In this document: piece after piece, positions 34,256 through 63,633 of the stretch
Layout of the letters: every line of letters begins with the position of its first letter
How positions within the stretch are numbered: position 1 is the stretch's first letter
Assembly (NCBI GenBank): GCA_965204735.1
Contig: OZ242008.1
Location: forward strand, 160,001 to 224,000
DNA from: Longimicrobiales bacterium
GTDB taxonomy: Bacteria > Gemmatimonadota > Gemmatimonadetes > Longimicrobiales > Gaopeijiaceae
Reading direction: 5' to 3'
Length of the DNA: 64,000 bases
Position numbers and translations under genes: made by a program
The notes under the pieces: model-generated
What the model saw: the letters and a program-made list of their open reading frames with translations, nothing else
Databases searched by the model: none
Told to the model about the DNA's origin: nothing

Positions 34256-34443
34256 CCGCCTCCGTGCTCCGTTTCCTGCGTGTCTCCGGCAATGCAAGCT
34301 AAAGGTGGACCTGGAGCGGCGCTTGGCCGACGCCCTGCCCCGACGACGCCTGCAAGCCCAGGTCGTCAGGTCGGCTCGGGGCCTCACGCGCTGCTGGGTG
34401 CGACAGCTTGCAGCTCCGCAATGCAGCCGATAATGTGCGCGAC

Positions 34444-35013
34444 ATGTCGGACCTGCCCGAAGTCGAAATCGACTTGGAGCGCCTGCGCGCCAGGGACCAG
34501 GAAGAAGTGACGAAGGTCGTAATGACGTACGGCCCCGTGCTCAAGTCGGTGTTTTGGGGAGTCGCGGTCGATCGGCATGACCTTGCCGACATCGTGAACG
34601 ACTTCTGGATACATATCGTGCCGAGACTGGACCGCTACTCCGGCAAGTCTCCGTTCGGGCCGTGGCTCGTGCGCTGCGCCAAGAACTTCCGCAACTCCAG
34701 GGCGCGCAAGAACAGCGCCTGGGCTGCTCGGACGGCAACCTTCAAGGAGCGCCGGGAGCTGGTGGTCGACGGTTCGGCCCTCGACGAGGAAGTCCAGCGG
34801 CAGTTGCTGAAGCAAGCCGTCTTCAAGGCAGTGGACGAGCTGCCGGGGCTGGAGGGCCAGGCGGTGACGCTGACGATGCTGGAGGGCCGGAGCAAGGCGG
34901 ACGCCGCGAAGATGCTGAACGTCAGCCAGGCGACGGTTGCGAACTTGGTGCGACGGGGGCTGTTCAAGCTGCAGGAGAACGAGCTTCTCCAAAGCTTTCA
35001 CGACGACATGTAG
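34444..35013 (+). CDS. ECF-type RNA polymerase sigma factor
   Basis: Region 2 (DLADIVNDFWIHI..YSGKSPFGPWL..CAKN) and region 4 (AVDELP..AAKMLNVSQATV..RGLFKL). Confidence 0.8.
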   Translation: MSDLPEVEIDLERLRARDQEEVTKVVMTYGPVLKSVFWGVAVDRHDLADIVNDFWIHIVPRLDRYSGKSPFGPWLVRCAKNFRNSRARKNSAWAARTATFKERRELVVDGSALDEEVQRQLLKQAVFKAVDELPGLEGQAVTLTMLEGRSKADAAKMLNVSQATVANLVRRGLFKLQENELLQSFHDDM

Positions 35014-35019
35014 GGACCC

Positions 35020-35754
35020 ATGCCGCCGCCGTTGCTCGCCCTGTCCGCCAGTTCGAGGTTGCGCCGGAAGCTCCGCATGGTCGCCGAGGCCGGCCCGGTG
35101 TCGCCGATCGTCGGACCCGTCGCCTTTGCTCGCAGCTGGAGCGGGCTGGCCGAGCTTGCCGCAGCTCACCCCGCGTCGCCGACGGTCGTCGATGCCGCGT
35201 TCCCCGAGGGTTCGCCCCCGCCGTCCACATTCGCGACGGCGCCGGGGATCGGTGGGAGCGACTCGCTTGGCGTCATTCGGCACGCCGTTCTTGGGGCCAT
35301 CGATCCCGAACGACCTCGTCGCTTGCTGGCCCGGATCCGCGAGCAAGGCGCCACCGAAGCCTGCCGGATCATGGACCACGTGCTGACCCGGTCCTTCGGT
35401 CCGTGCACGGTACCGGACTTGGCGGCGAGCCTGGGGCTGTCCCACTGGTCGCTGCTCCGCCGTTGCGCCGCCCTCGGCATTCCCACGCCCAAGAAGCTGA
35501 CCGACCTGGGACGCGTCTACACCGTCGAGCGACTGGCCGAGTGGAGCGAGCAACCGTCGGGCGTCGCGGCAACGGCCGTGGGGTACCCGGAGCCCGCCAA
35601 CTACCGACGAACGGCTCGCCGTGCCCTGGGCGAGCCGCCGACGGCGATCCGTCGCAGCGGCGGCGCCGCCTACGTGGGCCGCGTCATTCTGCGGAGGCTG
35701 GCGCCGCCGCCGACAGGTCCCGTCGGCCTCGCGCAACACGGCGCCAAAAACTGA
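35020..35754 (+). CDS. AraC-like HTH transcriptional regulator
   Basis: TVPDLAASLGLSHWSLLRRC..GIPTPKKL; ATAVGYPEPANYRR second HTH; homologous to the C-half of 62230-63633. Confidence 0.75.
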   Translation: MPPPLLALSASSRLRRKLRMVAEAGPVSPIVGPVAFARSWSGLAELAAAHPASPTVVDAAFPEGSPPPSTFATAPGIGGSDSLGVIRHAVLGAIDPERPRRLLARIREQGATEACRIMDHVLTRSFGPCTVPDLAASLGLSHWSLLRRCAALGIPTPKKLTDLGRVYTVERLAEWSEQPSGVAATAVGYPEPANYRRTARRALGEPPTAIRRSGGAAYVGRVILRRLAPPPTGPVGLAQHGAKN

Positions 35755-35794
35755 CCTGCATGTTCAGGGTTTCGAGAGCGTTCAACAGGTACGC
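35743..35794 (+). promoter_or_regulatory. Class A promoter-like motif GCCAAAAACTGACCTGCAT-N16-GCGTTCA-N4-GTACGC
   Basis: Same blocks at identical spacing at 42274-42325; lies directly upstream of a propeller operon. Confidence 0.7.
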
Positions 35795-35827
35795 ACAGCG
35801 GTCTCACATCCAACTGGGGGTGGCAGG

Positions 35828-36883
35828 ATGAAGGTGCGGCGCGTGTTCGCCCAAGTGGTCGCTACCACCACCTTGGCAAGTTGTGGCAGCGATCCGGTCC
35901 CGTATCGGCCCTTGTTCTCGTTGGCGGACACGGTCTCCAGAGTGAAGTCGGCCGCGGTCTTCGACACGCTGTGGGCGTTCGGTGGCCCGGACGACACGCT
36001 TCTCGCCTTGCCGGCAATGCCCCGTCCCGATGGTTCCGGCGGGGTGGTCTTCGTCGACGTGCAGAGCATGAAGGTTCATCGCATCGGGGGCGAGGGGACG
36101 TTGCTGTGGTCGTGGGGCCGCAAGGGCGAAGGCCCAGGCGAGATCAAGAACGTTCGGGCCATGGACGTTCGCGACGACGGCTCCGTGGTTCTCGTCGACT
36201 CGGGGAACCGGCGGATCGTGACGCTGGACTCTGGCGGCAAGCAGATCGGCGAAACGGGCTTTTTCGGGAGGACGGTGCACTCCGTGGCGTCTCTCTTGGA
36301 GGACAAGCTCGCAGTCCACTCGACCAGCCCGTTGTGGGGCGTCTTGGAGGGCGGCAAAGTGCAGGAAGCGGAGTCTCCTCCTGGAACGGGTCCCTCTCCG
36401 TCGGTGGTGCAGCACCAAGGCCACGTCGTGAGGTGGCGAGGGGACAAGTGGGTGTTCGGCTACGGAGTGGGGAACGGCTGGATGGTCTTTGCCGATGACG
36501 CGCTTGTCGGCGTGCATCCATATGTGGAGCACACGGAGGTCCCGGCAGTGCGGGAGGCAGACCGGGTGCGCCGGACCTCTGGCTTCGTCTCCCGGCCTGT
36601 GACGTCCGGCCGTTCCCTTGCAGTGATCGGCGACACTCTGCATGTGCTTTTCGGCGGCGTCAAGGGCCTGGCTGGCCACAAGATCGACAGATACAACCTT
36701 CGGACGGGCGAGTACTTGAACACCGATCTGCTGCCGCACTACGCAAACCGAGCGGCCATGGCCGAAGGAAGAGTGGTCACCGTCTATTCGGCGGGTCTGT
36801 TCCCGCGTATCGTGGCGCTGGCGCGCAGGTCCCCTGACGACGTAGAAGCTGGTGTCAGCCTCGACAAAGGAGTTGAAAGATGA
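35828..36883 (+). CDS. 6-bladed beta-propeller lipoprotein
   Basis: Lipobox LASC; WGRKGEGPGEI motif. Confidence 0.8.
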   Translation: MKVRRVFAQVVATTTLASCGSDPVPYRPLFSLADTVSRVKSAAVFDTLWAFGGPDDTLLALPAMPRPDGSGGVVFVDVQSMKVHRIGGEGTLLWSWGRKGEGPGEIKNVRAMDVRDDGSVVLVDSGNRRIVTLDSGGKQIGETGFFGRTVHSVASLLEDKLAVHSTSPLWGVLEGGKVQEAESPPGTGPSPSVVQHQGHVVRWRGDKWVFGYGVGNGWMVFADDALVGVHPYVEHTEVPAVREADRVRRTSGFVSRPVTSGRSLAVIGDTLHVLFGGVKGLAGHKIDRYNLRTGEYLNTDLLPHYANRAAMAEGRVVTVYSAGLFPRIVALARRSPDDVEAGVSLDKGVER

Positions 36884-38073
36884 TCAAGCCGGTTCGCTTG
36901 ATCTCCGTCTCGCGCCTGCTGGCGCGCACGGTGGCCGCTGCCCTGCTGCTGAGCTTCCTCGCTTGTTCCGACGCCCCGGGCGCGCACGACGCAGTCGCGA
37001 ACGACGGCTCCCGCCCCTGGGCTTCGCGGGATTCCTGGCTGGAGGCTCGGCTTGAGGCCGTTTCAGACGCAAGCCTGAACCTGGGCGAGGTCTTGGGCTT
37101 GGCAGTCGGGCATCAGGACATGGTCTACGTGCTGGACGCACTTAGTCCAGGCGTGGTCGTCTTGGACTCGCTTCTGTCGCCGGTCACGACGGTCGGCCGA
37201 CGAGGCGAAGGACCCGGCGAGTTCATGTTCATCCGCAACGTCCAGGTCCTGCCCGGAGACAGCCTGATGGTGTTCGACGGACAGCTGAAGCGCGTCACCG
37301 TCTTGTCAGAAGCGCCGGAAGCGCCGGAAGCGCAGTACGACTCGATGCGCTTCGCGGTGGTGCCCGCCGACGTCTCGCAACTCTGGAGAATGCTCGGACC
37401 CGTTGGGAACTACTTGGCCTACGACCGGCGAACGTTCTACGCAGGTGACATTCCAGAGGCAGACGCAGCACGCAACGACGTGTTCTTCGTCCTCGGCGAC
37501 GACGGCCTGACCAAGCGGCATGATTCCGTTCTGGTTGCCCCATCGTTGGAGACCTTGGTCGCGCGGAGTTCCGGGGCCGTGGCGCTCGGCCGGCACCCGT
37601 ACGGCCGCGAAGGATTCGTGGGAATGCTGACCAACGGGGGCTTCGCATACGTCAACTCGGACGCACTGTCGGTTGCGATCTTCGACGACGAAGGGCAACA
37701 AACCCGGTCGTTCTCGTATCCTACCGTCCCGTTGCCGGTGTCGTCCCAGGACCTTGCTGCCGAACTCGACAAGCTTCGACCGGCCCTTGCGAGAGTGCTG
37801 AGGGAAGGGGCTCCCTACACGCGGCCTCCGTTGGTTGGCATGGTCGTGGACGACCAGGATCGGATCTGGCTGGGGCTGCGCGGACCTGCCGAAGAGATGC
37901 CATGGGAATGGGCCGCGTTCGAGCTCGACGGTCGCCATGTGGGCTCGGTGCGCCTGCCTGCCGGTCTCTTGCTTCGCGCAGCCACAGGGGGCAAGCTGCT
38001 GGGAGTGGCCGTCGACGACCTCGAGGTGCCGAGGATTCACCTCTATCGGACCGTTGGGACGGCCGCATCATGA
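36880..38073 (+). CDS. 6-bladed beta-propeller lipoprotein
   Basis: Lipobox FLAC; VGRRGEGPGEF motif; DDLEVPRIHLY C-terminus. Confidence 0.8.
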   Translation: MIKPVRLISVSRLLARTVAAALLLSFLACSDAPGAHDAVANDGSRPWASRDSWLEARLEAVSDASLNLGEVLGLAVGHQDMVYVLDALSPGVVVLDSLLSPVTTVGRRGEGPGEFMFIRNVQVLPGDSLMVFDGQLKRVTVLSEAPEAPEAQYDSMRFAVVPADVSQLWRMLGPVGNYLAYDRRTFYAGDIPEADAARNDVFFVLGDDGLTKRHDSVLVAPSLETLVARSSGAVALGRHPYGREGFVGMLTNGGFAYVNSDALSVAIFDDEGQQTRSFSYPTVPLPVSSQDLAAELDKLRPALARVLREGAPYTRPPLVGMVVDDQDRIWLGLRGPAEEMPWEWAAFELDGRHVGSVRLPAGLLLRAATGGKLLGVAVDDLEVPRIHLYRTVGTAAS

Positions 38074-62094: not shown

Positions 62095-62146
62095 GGCGGA
62101 AAGTGACCTATCGAGGGAACGGCTCTCCAGCGTTCTCGAAGTGTTC
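62095..62146 (+). promoter_or_regulatory. Degenerate class A motif upstream of the sigma-AraC fusion
   Basis: AAAGTGACCT..GCGTTC with the same 26-nt TGACCT-to-GCGTTC offset as the class A copies. Confidence 0.45.
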
Positions 62147-62229
62147 GCGGGCTGGACCGGAACACGTCCGGGAACCTTTGGCGGTTTGCGGAGTATCACT
62201 GTCAGTAACCGCCAACAGGGGGCCGCCCA

Positions 62230-63633
62230 ATGGACGCTGCTTCGCCAATCGACTCGACCGCCGACACGCCGAAGGCAACCGAGAGACCACCCACGCTCGC
62301 CGAGCTGGAACGCTTCCGAGCCGCCGACCCCGCCCTCCTGCGGGAGTGGCTCGCGGAGGTGGAGCCACGCCTGATCGGGACGATAGCGGGCTGGGCCGCC
62401 GATCCCGCCCACGCGGACGACCTGCTGCAGGAGGTCCAGGTCCGCATCTACCGGCGGCGGGCAGGCTTTTCCGGCTCCGGCACGTTCGCGCGGTGGGCGG
62501 ACAAGGTCTGCCTGAACATCTGTCGCACCGATCAGCGCATGAGGGCGCGCAATCGGGCGGTGCCGATCGACCAGTGCCCGGAGATCGCGGACGACGCGCC
62601 CGGTCCCGCGGAGCAGTTCCAGAGCCGCCTGCGGGCCGCGACGGTTCGCGAGGCCGTCGAACGGCTGGACGAGAGGGAGCGGGAAGCGGTCGTCGCCTGT
62701 CACCTCGAGGAGCTGCCGACGGCCGAGGTCGCCCGAACGATGAAGACGACCGAACAGGTCGTCAGAACCCTGGTCCACCGGGGCTTCCGGAAGCTCAGGA
62801 GCATGGACGACGTGACGGAGTTCATGATCGGCTCCAACAGCCGCGCGCCACAAGCGTCCTCCGTTCTCGCGCTCCAATCGGACTGCCGGCTTCGGACTCG
62901 GTTGCGGACGGGCGTGCGGGCCGGGGCCGTCCACGGCTTGGTGGAAGGCGTCCACTTCGCCTCCGGCTGGAGCGACCTGCGGGAGTTGGCGCTCCGCTTC
63001 AGTGGTTCGCCCGCGTTCGTGGACCCCTCGCATCCCTCGGCGGAGGAACGACGAGACCCAGCGGCGTGGTTGCAGCAGGCGGTGCCGGAGTGTCCTCTGA
63101 TCCGCTACGGGAAGGGCGGCGCCAAGTCGCCGGCCACGGACGCCGAGTTCGTCGCGCGTCTGACGCCCGGCGACAACGACAGCCTCGTGGCGATCGGCAC
63201 TGCGGTGCTTCTGGCCGCCAACTACGACTTGGTGCGCAACCTGCTGGCGAACCTCGGGAAGGTCGCTCCCGTCGAAGCTCGAGAGCTTCTGGGGAGCGTC
63301 GTTCGCCGCACGGTGTTCCCGTGCACGGTCGGGGCACTGGCGACGAGCTGGGGAACCAGCGTGGCGATGGTAGGGCGGCGGTGCCGGGCGTGGGGACTGC
63401 CGAAGCCCAAGAGACTCGTCTTGCTGGCACGCCTCTTTCACGTGCAGAGGCTGGCCGAATGGAGCGGTCGGCCGCCGGGCGCGATCGCCCTCGCCCTGGG
63501 CTACTCGGCCTACTCCAACTACGCGCGGTGCGTGCGAAGGGAGATGGAGTGCACGTCGTCGGAGGTCGCCCAACGCGGCGGAGCGGCCTACGTGGCCGCG
63601 AGACTGATCGACGAGGTTGGGGACTCCCGATGA
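62230..63633 (+). CDS. ECF sigma factor - AraC-like HTH fusion protein
   Basis: ADDLLQEV..FSGSGTFARW..CLN (region 2), EVARTM..VRTLVHRGFRKL (region 4), then TVGALA..GLPKPKRL..ALALGYSAYSNY. Confidence 0.8.
   Translation: MDAASPIDSTADTPKATERPPTLAELERFRAADPALLREWLAEVEPRLIGTIAGWAADPAHADDLLQEVQVRIYRRRAGFSGSGTFARWADKVCLNICRTDQRMRARNRAVPIDQCPEIADDAPGPAEQFQSRLRAATVREAVERLDEREREAVVACHLEELPTAEVARTMKTTEQVVRTLVHRGFRKLRSMDDVTEFMIGSNSRAPQASSVLALQSDCRLRTRLRTGVRAGAVHGLVEGVHFASGWSDLRELALRFSGSPAFVDPSHPSAEERRDPAAWLQQAVPECPLIRYGKGGAKSPATDAEFVARLTPGDNDSLVAIGTAVLLAANYDLVRNLLANLGKVAPVEARELLGSVVRRTVFPCTVGALATSWGTSVAMVGRRCRAWGLPKPKRLVLLARLFHVQRLAEWSGRPPGAIALALGYSAYSNYARCVRREMECTSSEVAQRGGAAYVAARLIDEVGDSR

Follow-up and report, generated by a model that had tools for sequence, protein, structure and literature searches.

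Why should a sigma factor of the extracytoplasmic function (ECF) family carry what appears to be a second transcription factor at its own C-terminus, and what might the two parts do together? The question is raised by a single gene at positions 62230-63633 of a 64,000-nucleotide stretch of contig OZ242008.1 from a Longimicrobiales bacterium (assembly GCA_965204735.1); we refer to this whole stretch, at its full length, as the window. Among the signalling proteins of bacteria, ECF sigma factors form a major class, known to be controlled by anti-sigma factors, by two-component systems, by kinases and by a small number of sensory extensions fused to them. The original prediction, made from the DNA letters and a list of open reading frames (ORFs), read the gene as an ECF sigma factor fused to an AraC-like domain and saw in it a Rosetta stone for a pair of separate genes elsewhere in the window. 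We find that the ORF is real and intact and that its product has three parts, an ECF sigma factor, a receiver-like domain and an AraC-type DNA-binding domain. We propose, with a probability of roughly 40%, that the protein is an ECF sigma factor whose own co-activator is tethered to it by a flexible linker.

Integrity of the fused gene

The ORF listing confirms one continuous reading frame of 467 codons at 62230-63633. Logan contigs from four public runs, belonging to four studies, cross the junction between the two halves with no gaps in the region examined (62500-63200); three of them cover all of that region and the contig from run X2 covers 62592-63200. Run X1 is a sponge metagenome and X2 a marine metagenome, X12 and X13 are labelled as organisms, and the X12 contig is identical to the window over this region and possibly the source of its sequence. 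Near the junction the contigs show just two substitutions, 62811 C>A (Asp194Glu) and 62823 C>T (synonymous). The contigs of the four runs contain neither a stop codon nor a frameshift at the junction, so the continuity of the frame assumed in the original prediction holds in independent records. A large protein collection contains the same fused protein at 99% identity and, among the matches listed, the same fusion is found on separate contigs of three other assemblies, in proteins of 467-478 aa and 80-81% identity that all bear sigma and HTH_18 Pfam domains.

These observations bear directly on whether the fusion could be an artefact of assembly, such as a long-read indel error, or a pseudogene. 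Indels or pseudogenes do occur in this genome, where another locus of the family (L002, described below) changes frame between sigma regions 2 and 4. For the gene considered here, however, such an explanation is highly improbable: the contigs from the four runs cover the junction without gaps and differ there by no more than one conservative and one synonymous change, the fused relatives come from three other contigs, and both halves keep the signatures of the family.

Three-part anatomy of the fused protein

The features of the gene, from alignments, profile matches and an AlphaFold2 (AF2) model, are as follows.

62230-63633, plus strand: the fused gene, 467 aa from an ATG start; ECF sigma, linker, receiver-like domain and AraC-type DNA-binding domain
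62359-62529, plus strand: sigma region 2, residues 44-100 (Pfam Sigma70_r2, 23.7 bits)
62644-62802, plus strand: sigma region 4, residues 139-191 (Pfam Sigma70_r4_2, 42.1 bits; Sigma70_r4, 37.4 bits)
62806-62862, plus strand: short helix (residues 193-199) followed by a flexible linker (200-211), from AF2 and the DNA alignment with a split orthologue
62863-63234, plus strand: receiver-like (CheY-fold) domain, non-canonical, residues ~212-335, from structure comparison of the AF2 model
63271-63573, plus strand: AraC/XylS double helix-turn-helix (HTH), residues ~348-448, from Pfam HTH_18, the family profile and AF2 helices 348-448
63583-63624, plus strand: family-specific C-terminal helix, residues 452-465, after an invariant Gly-Gly (450-451), from alignment and AF2

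The AF2 model of the whole protein has a mean predicted local distance difference test score (pLDDT) of 88.3, falling below 50 only at residues 1-3 and 201-206, and a predicted template modelling score (pTM) of 0.60.

The sigma part belongs to the ECF family. Its ~190 residues before the linker contain regions 2 and 4 and lack regions 1 and 3, and the NCBIfam model TIGR02937 (sigma70-ECF) matches residues 37-191 of the fused protein at 76.9 bits, against a cut-off of 42.9. The Sigma70_r4_2 match (residues 139-189) is well clear of its cut-off of 25.7 bits, and that to Sigma70_r2 falls 0.3 bits below the gathering score of 24. In Foldseek the sigma part matches SigH (9m9e_F, E 4.8e-6), SigW, AlgU, RpoE, SigL and SigK, all with a probability of 1.00. 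No specific NCBIfam sigma subfamily reached its cut-off on the fused protein, and the ESM Atlas returned clusters of ordinary ECF sigma factors of ~200 aa (scores 0.79-0.80, at the level of leads) and no fused cluster.

The C-half, modelled alone, forms one compact unit (pLDDT 91.6, pTM 0.89). Both parts of the two-part architecture originally proposed, sigma factor and AraC-type domain, are borne out by our analysis, but a domain of ~125 residues between them had been overlooked: the first ~125 residues of the C-half fold as beta-alpha repeats. When the model was compared with 48,161 solved chains by VIA-align, receiver domains made up nearly all of the best 50 rows (Z 11.4-13.0, typically ~110-125 residues, root-mean-square deviation (rmsd) 2.4-3.4). 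The best Foldseek rows for the C-half are the full-length response regulators FixJ, StyR and RcsB, with receiver domains of AraC-type regulators (AraT, 3cu5) also listed and no match at E <= 0.001. The model lacks a helix between beta4 and beta5, and Pfam Response_reg gave no match in four receiver-like pieces scanned at E up to 10; three of the four had no match of any kind at that threshold and the fourth had two irrelevant ones.

The roles of the acidic pair, the Thr/Ser and the Lys positions in receivers are known from the CheY literature. Asp265 (D61 of the C-half, in an FVDP motif) is invariant in 16 of 16 aligned sequences and follows model strand 58-60, at the end of beta3, its equivalence to the phospho-acceptor being one of model position only. 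When the 16-row alignment is set against the model strands, the acidic pair after beta1 is variable (E/Q-x-D/N/S), Tyr-Gly/Ala stands at the Thr/Ser position after beta4, and the Lys position after beta5 falls in L-x-P-G, where x is T, M, A, D, I, R, Q or others. Pfam searches of the neighbouring genes showed no kinase domain in the modules of the family, a 403-aa membrane protein among them having no Pfam match. Because these three positions are not conserved and the modules show no kinase domain, we consider the domain to be receiver-like and probably independent of phosphorylation. Since it is placed between sigma region 4 and the AraC-type domain, the extension amounts to a whole response-regulator-like protein.

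The prediction that the C-half would adopt an HTH fold agrees with the confident AF2 model and with a profile of 16 family members, which matches the DNA-binding domain of AdpA (E 1.4e-5), VirS (2.2e-5) and the AraC-family entry 3mn2 (0.0024) over ~90-96 residues. The same profile matches SoxS weakly (E 0.049). The HTH_18 score is 34.8 bits in the partner protein of the window's split pair and 30.4-40.1 in the other fused members. The fused protein's second recognition helix contains Tyr431 and Arg433, both invariant in the family alignment, and G246, G247 and V251 are likewise invariant in the 16-row alignment of the C-half. Both DNA-binding parts of the fused protein look functional.

Between the sigma factor and the extension, AF2 places a helix at residues 193-199 and a flexible segment, with pLDDT below 50 at residues 201-206. 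The short helix after sigma region 4 (window 62806-62826) recurs in partner-linked sigma factors at L003, L008, L009, L010, L013 and L049, with sequences such as MDDVTEF, MDEVMEL and SEDVMEM, and several unlinked ECF sigma factors at the same loci are without it. It is possible that this conserved helix serves as a docking element.

Split orthologues and the origin of the fusion

In a genome of the same genus (G055) the orthologous sigma factor (51% identity) and C-half (59%) are encoded by two adjacent genes, and the nearest species representative that the genome collection yielded (L049, 64% identity) likewise has split, adjacent genes. The true unfused orthologues are therefore split genes in sister species. 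The DNA alignment of the junction was made with one split orthologue (59%, G055); over 14 nt, G055 has TAG, 11 nt and then ATG, where the fused gene has lost the stop codon and has one extra base, so that both frames are in register. Given a TAG and a spacer at this place in G055, residues ~200-211 of the fused protein represent the former stop codon and intergenic spacer.

The family resides in Longimicrobiales (Gemmatimonadota), with the records of relatives naming Longimicrobiales at 10 of 12 loci and Gemmatimonadetes at two. In a sample across the phylum, 132 of 401 genomes match the C-half at E <= 1e-15; the strong matches come from a few genera of the window's family and one genome of another family, and the rest are weaker homologues of ~270 aa. 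We scanned all fetched loci with profiles of both halves, and the 48 distinct loci with a strong C-half fall into the following states of linkage to a sigma gene.

8 of 48 loci: fused
11 of 48 loci: sigma immediately upstream
8 of 48 loci: sigma upstream, same strand, within 3 kb
3 of 48 loci: sigma on the other strand
2 of 48 loci: sigma downstream
16 of 48 loci: no sigma in the fetched flank (mostly 1.5 kb)

An exhaustive search of 1.84 billion cluster representatives gave 48 proteins at E <= 1e-30, and 10 of these 48 clusters are fused, at lengths of 454-525 aa with the C-half at the C-terminus. Pfam, run on eight of the ten, found Sigma70_r2 and HTH_18 in all eight and r4_2 in seven, and the remaining two have precomputed matches to a sigma region and HTH_18. 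At least one fused relative (P0014) is unnamed, with NCBI given among its sources.

We built a maximum-likelihood tree of 56 C-halves and rooted it on ten weak homologues; the fused rows fall into two clades, both starred. One row of the outgroup, L047, is from a genome flagged as unpublished, and none of our claims rests on it. The first, consisting of this protein and its three relatives at ~80% identity, is nested among split sequences. The second is older, with five members from four genera and two GTDB families, which are 24-35% identical to this protein and all retain the sigma and HTH_18 domains. A tree of 67 rows requires three changes of the fused label, of which the starred branches force at least two. 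Placing all 11 fused rows in a single clade costs a log-likelihood difference of 50.7 (P = 0.0064 in the approximately unbiased test), a figure to be read with two caveats: we defined the fused group once the first tree was already in view, and some fused rows lie on long branches. A single origin of the fusion is rejected, there are at least two separately placed fused clades, and the fused state has been maintained over long divergence.

We considered whether these patterns could arise with no direct contact between the two parts. Sigma factor and regulator would then be two steps of one cascade, the regulator switching on the sigma operon or the sigma factor transcribing the regulator, and the fusion would be a tolerated loss of a stop codon, with the C-half perhaps made from Met199. 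The fusion is indeed young in this lineage, being confined to proteins that share 80% identity or more, with the genes split in relatives at 59-66%, and nothing but the stop codon and the one extra base distinguishes it from the aligned split orthologue. Met199 is an in-frame ATG at the junction (62824-62826) with GGAG three bases upstream (62812-62826), from which the C-half could also be translated separately, and control of ECF sigma genes by two-component regulators is already known (PMC7826278). An accident that hampered either part, however, should neither persist nor recur, and the second fused clade has kept every domain intact across two families and ~24-35% identity, while two genomes bear two fused paralogues each. 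We therefore regard a cascade of two independent proteins as unlikely.

The split pair in the window and other copies in the genome

The pair of genes with which the fusion had been compared lies some distance upstream in the window.

34408-35013, plus strand: sigma gene of a paralogous split module, 201 aa from TTG (ATG at 34444), with Sigma70_r2 and r4_2; TIGR02937 62.9 bits
35020-35754, plus strand: receiver-like and AraC gene of the same module, 244 aa; HTH_18 34.8 bits

Both resemblances that had been noted are upheld by BLASTP, which aligns the N-half with the 34408 sigma at 24% identity (45/186, E 2e-7) and the C-half with the 35020 protein at 38% (93/244, E 9e-38, 29 gap positions). 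The spacing was also given correctly, with 6 nt between the sigma stop at 35013 and the partner start at 35020, and the motifs given are there, apart from one reading: the split sigma has YSG in place of FSG. The pair is nevertheless a distant paralogue in the other main branch of the tree and not the unfused orthologue. What survives of the Rosetta-stone proposal is the reading itself, supported because the fusion is conserved and its closest relatives are split; what does not is the choice of the window's own pair as the counterpart.

The 35020 protein is without part of the receiver-like domain, and the profile matches it in two pieces (1-68 and 100-257). L065, L066 and L072 match in the same two pieces, as a shortened sub-type. 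The Pfam family PhyR_sigma-like was matched by the window's split sigma only, below its cut-off (25.1 against 27). A complex prediction for the split pair (34444-35010 with 35020-35751) gave scores of 0.00 and 0.16, where the mark is 0.32, and counts neither way.

Five copies of the family are present in the window's genome: the fusion, the window's split pair, a further split pair (L003), a frame-changed pair (L002) and a trio (L004). L002 (G000:C1:3440640-3442022, minus strand) was considered as a second fusion, with an ORF of 512 aa, and rejected because sigma region 4 is in another frame; tblastn places residues 1-168 in frame -1 and residues 142-200 in frame -2, and the locus is a sigma pseudogene with a frameshift, or else the assembly has an indel error there.

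At L004 (G000:C1:4011725-4015483) the order is sigma, a 403-aa membrane protein and the C-half gene. The order sigma, multi-pass membrane protein of ~400 aa and receiver-like AraC protein is found at L004, L015, L052, L053, L063 and L074. The ~400-aa protein has no Pfam match and no usable match in the ESM Atlas; it may be a sensor or anti-sigma factor that adjacent and fused modules no longer have. Several modules adjoin genes whose products are secreted proteins bearing a GxGPGEF motif (window 35621-36883 and 36880-38073; L004:230-1363; L008; L012). One such protein matches DUF5128 (6-bladed beta-propeller), and Pfam found no match in the products of window 35621-36883 and 36880-38073.

A candidate promoter motif shared within the family

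Upstream of the fused gene we find a candidate promoter of the ECF type.

62171-62196, plus strand: putative ECF-type promoter, with -35 GGAACC (62171-62176), a 16-nt spacer and -10 GTAT (62193-62196), 33 nt before the ATG

The motif GGAAC[CT]-N16-GTA occurs eight times in 296 kb of fetched loci, six times directly upstream of sigma or fused genes of the family. Genome-wide, GGAACY-N16-GTAY has 35 matches, compared with 7-20 at spacings of 13-15 and 17-20. Before the sigma gene of the closest split relative among the fetched loci stand GGAACC, a similar spacer of 17 nt and GTAC, and conservation between orthologous promoters is mainly from -35 to -10. The element looks like an autoregulated ECF promoter that is common to paralogous sigma factors.

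Sites of the motif lie at window 62171-62196 and at G000:C1 798747, 1741826, 2744242, 2990392, 3442110, 3495423, 3496186 and 3791097, and GGAACY-N16-GTAY stands before three of the family's sigma genes and before six lipoprotein genes, four paralogues of ~163 aa and two of ~380 aa. The genes so preceded are a candidate regulon of this sigma subfamily. Additional copies of GGAAC(C) are found upstream of the -35 at two of these places: three GGAAC copies lie within 62110-62176 before the fused gene, and near G000:C1 2990392 (minus strand) three 'cgatGGAACCc' units are spaced ~22 nt apart. They may represent sites for an activator or tandem promoters, or be due to chance.

The fused gene is followed downstream, from 63795 to the end of the window, by genes for an outer-membrane beta-barrel protein (OMP_b-brl_2) and then a TonB-dependent receptor, the latter with a carboxypeptidase-regulatory-like domain. 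G055 has the same order, beta-barrel protein then TonB-dependent receptor (L007:3066-4401), and these two genes are possible targets.

A proposed model for the action of the fused regulator

Since the regulator is encoded by a separate neighbouring gene in sister species, both parts likely act together on the same promoters. Among the explanations that we weighed, we favour that of a tethered co-activator because the fusion is real and has recurred, sigma factor and regulator are linked family-wide, the DNA-binding parts are conserved and the promoter motif is common; the probability of roughly 40% given above applies to this proposal. Physical coupling of sigma factor and regulator, which the original prediction had already suggested, is what we infer from the fusion.

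When AraC/XylS activators make contact with sigma region 4, they do so from a site on DNA that adjoins the -35 element. In the model we propose, core RNA polymerase would be bound by the sigma part, whose regions 2 and 4 would recognise the GGAACC/GTAY promoter, while the AraC-type domain would bind DNA beside the -35 element. In the split systems regulator and sigma factor would be held together through the receiver-like domain, a contact whose place the linker would take in the fused proteins. The extra contact with DNA could let paralogous sigma factors with near-identical core promoters address different genes. We hold more tentatively a fuller version, in which one polypeptide reads the -10, the -35 and an upstream site, a pseudo-receiver independent of phosphorylation docks on the sigma factor, the arrangement arose at least twice from pairs of sigma and regulator genes, and a new mode of ECF control is defined by a partner that takes the place of an anti-sigma factor; we think this, as a whole, less likely than not.

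Several systems offer precedents for individual steps. Rob, of the AraC/XylS family, engages RNA polymerase through the C-terminal domain of the alpha subunit and region 4 of sigma70 (PMC9178005). PorX, a response regulator, attaches to the ECF sigma factor SigP and stabilises it (PMC5005315, citing Kadowaki et al. 2016), and the DNA-binding protein CarD has been connected with the activity of several ECF sigma factors (PMC4374960, PMC6061681).

A number of observations weigh against a tethered co-activator. No contact between the sigma factor and the receiver-like domain is evident, the model of the whole protein reaching a pTM of only 0.60. The HTH_18 match in the fused copy (residues 370-448, 33.4 bits) falls 0.2 bits below the Pfam cut-off of 33.6. 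The 70 nt upstream of six promoters, aligned by eye, contain no common motif that might be an AraC site, and GGAAC(C) repeats are found upstream of some promoters only. Rob displaces sigma region 4 from the -35 element rather than binding beside it (PMC9178005). One genome has, at L013, a sigma homologue as close as 49% identity, yet the phylum-wide search gave no match to the C-half in it. The 16 of 48 loci with no sigma gene in their flanks, most of just 1.5 kb, decide neither way and are counted on this side.

The same data can be read differently if the C-terminal module is a regulatory extension of the sigma factor and not a co-activator. The receiver-like domain would clamp sigma regions 2 and 4, in the manner of the PhyR receiver or the SnoaL domain of ECF41, and release or activate them on a signal; the split partner would be a soluble anti-sigma factor or stabiliser, like PorX for SigP, and the AraC-type domain would be secondary. 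The partner gene lies at +1 of the sigma gene, the usual place of an anti-sigma gene, and the adjacent modules contain no other anti-sigma candidate. C-terminal extensions are, moreover, reported to be the second most common mode of ECF regulation (PMC7826278), and the binding of SigP by PorX (PMC5005315) is also consistent with this view. The AraC-type domain, however, is conserved like the rest of the protein and retains its recognition-helix residues, which a pure anti-sigma factor would not need. A phosphorylation switch is unlikely because the Thr and Lys switch residues are absent from the receiver-like domain, and no kinase is seen in the modules, which include the 403-aa membrane protein without a Pfam match. 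Solved chains of PhyR align with the model over 297-318 columns and in the same order, sigma-like and then receiver, but at an rmsd of 20-22 Å, so that the match is one of domain order and not of packing. On balance we find a regulatory extension of this kind somewhat unlikely.

Comparison with known systems

PhyR is the alphaproteobacterial anti-anti-sigma factor of the general stress response, in which a sigma-like decoy binds NepR, the receiver is phosphorylated and there is no DNA-binding output. Unlike PhyR, the fused protein has a sigma part that passes the ECF cut-off, a receiver without the Thr and Lys positions and an AraC-type domain that follows it.

The AraC-type response regulators YesN, AraT and XynC are alike in having a receiver followed by an AraC domain in ~260 residues, and the AraT and XynC receivers are among the fold matches (Z 12.1 and 11.8). 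They differ from the proteins described here, which have no Response_reg match, do not conserve the acidic pair, Thr or Lys, show no kinase gene nearby and are partnered with a sigma factor. Rob, SoxS and their relatives share the DNA-binding fold of the fused C-terminal domain; whereas they act in trans on the housekeeping sigma factor, the partner here is an ECF sigma factor, and it is covalently attached in a fifth of the family's clusters. The PorX-SigP system of Porphyromonas gingivalis likewise pairs a response regulator with an ECF sigma factor, and the PorX receiver is among the fold matches (Z 12.5). PorX and SigP are, however, separate proteins, and PorX has an output domain other than an AraC DNA-binding domain and is itself a phosphorylation substrate of PorY; it binds its sigma factor, as we suppose the regulator does here.

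As in other ECF sigma factors with extensions, a core of sigma regions 2 and 4 is fused to a C-terminal domain, a separate anti-sigma gene is missing and the partner of the split systems occupies the +1 position. The extension types that have been described include SnoaL-like (ECF41, ECF56, ECF294 and ECF295), TPR (ECF42), Cys-rich (ECF238), DUF1835 (ECF264) and transmembrane (ECF263). Pfam finds no SnoaL-like or TPR domain of the ECF41 or ECF42 type in the fused protein, whose extension folds as a receiver and an AraC domain. Unlike these, it is a complete response-regulator-like transcription factor with a second DNA-binding domain.

The original prediction knew of no description of AraC as a C-terminal extension of ECF sigma factors, and the literature agrees with it as far as our sources reach: AraC, HTH_18 and PF12833 have no occurrence in the main text and part of the supplement of the ECF classification 2.0 (PMC7826278), nor AraC or HTH in the main text of a 2022 review of non-canonical ECF sigma factors (PMC8999054). 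An ECF sigma factor with a receiver-like, AraC-type transcription factor as its C-terminal extension thus matches no extension type named in those parts of PMC7826278. In the ECF literature searched, which covers few subscription journals, we found no description of an ECF sigma-AraC fusion, and an earlier description elsewhere is possible.

Implications

If the tethered co-activator is correct, it would add a mode of control to those recognised for ECF sigma factors, whereby the sigma factor itself incorporates a further DNA-binding protein. It would also offer synthetic biology a sigma factor with a potentially longer and more specific promoter. For genome annotation, the family implies that a gene at +1 of an ECF sigma gene need not encode an anti-sigma factor. 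The Longimicrobiales considered here are uncultured Gemmatimonadota, and among the runs that contain the region of the junction are sponge and marine metagenomes; for the ~48 uncharacterised protein clusters of the family in this group, the model provides a testable hypothesis of function.

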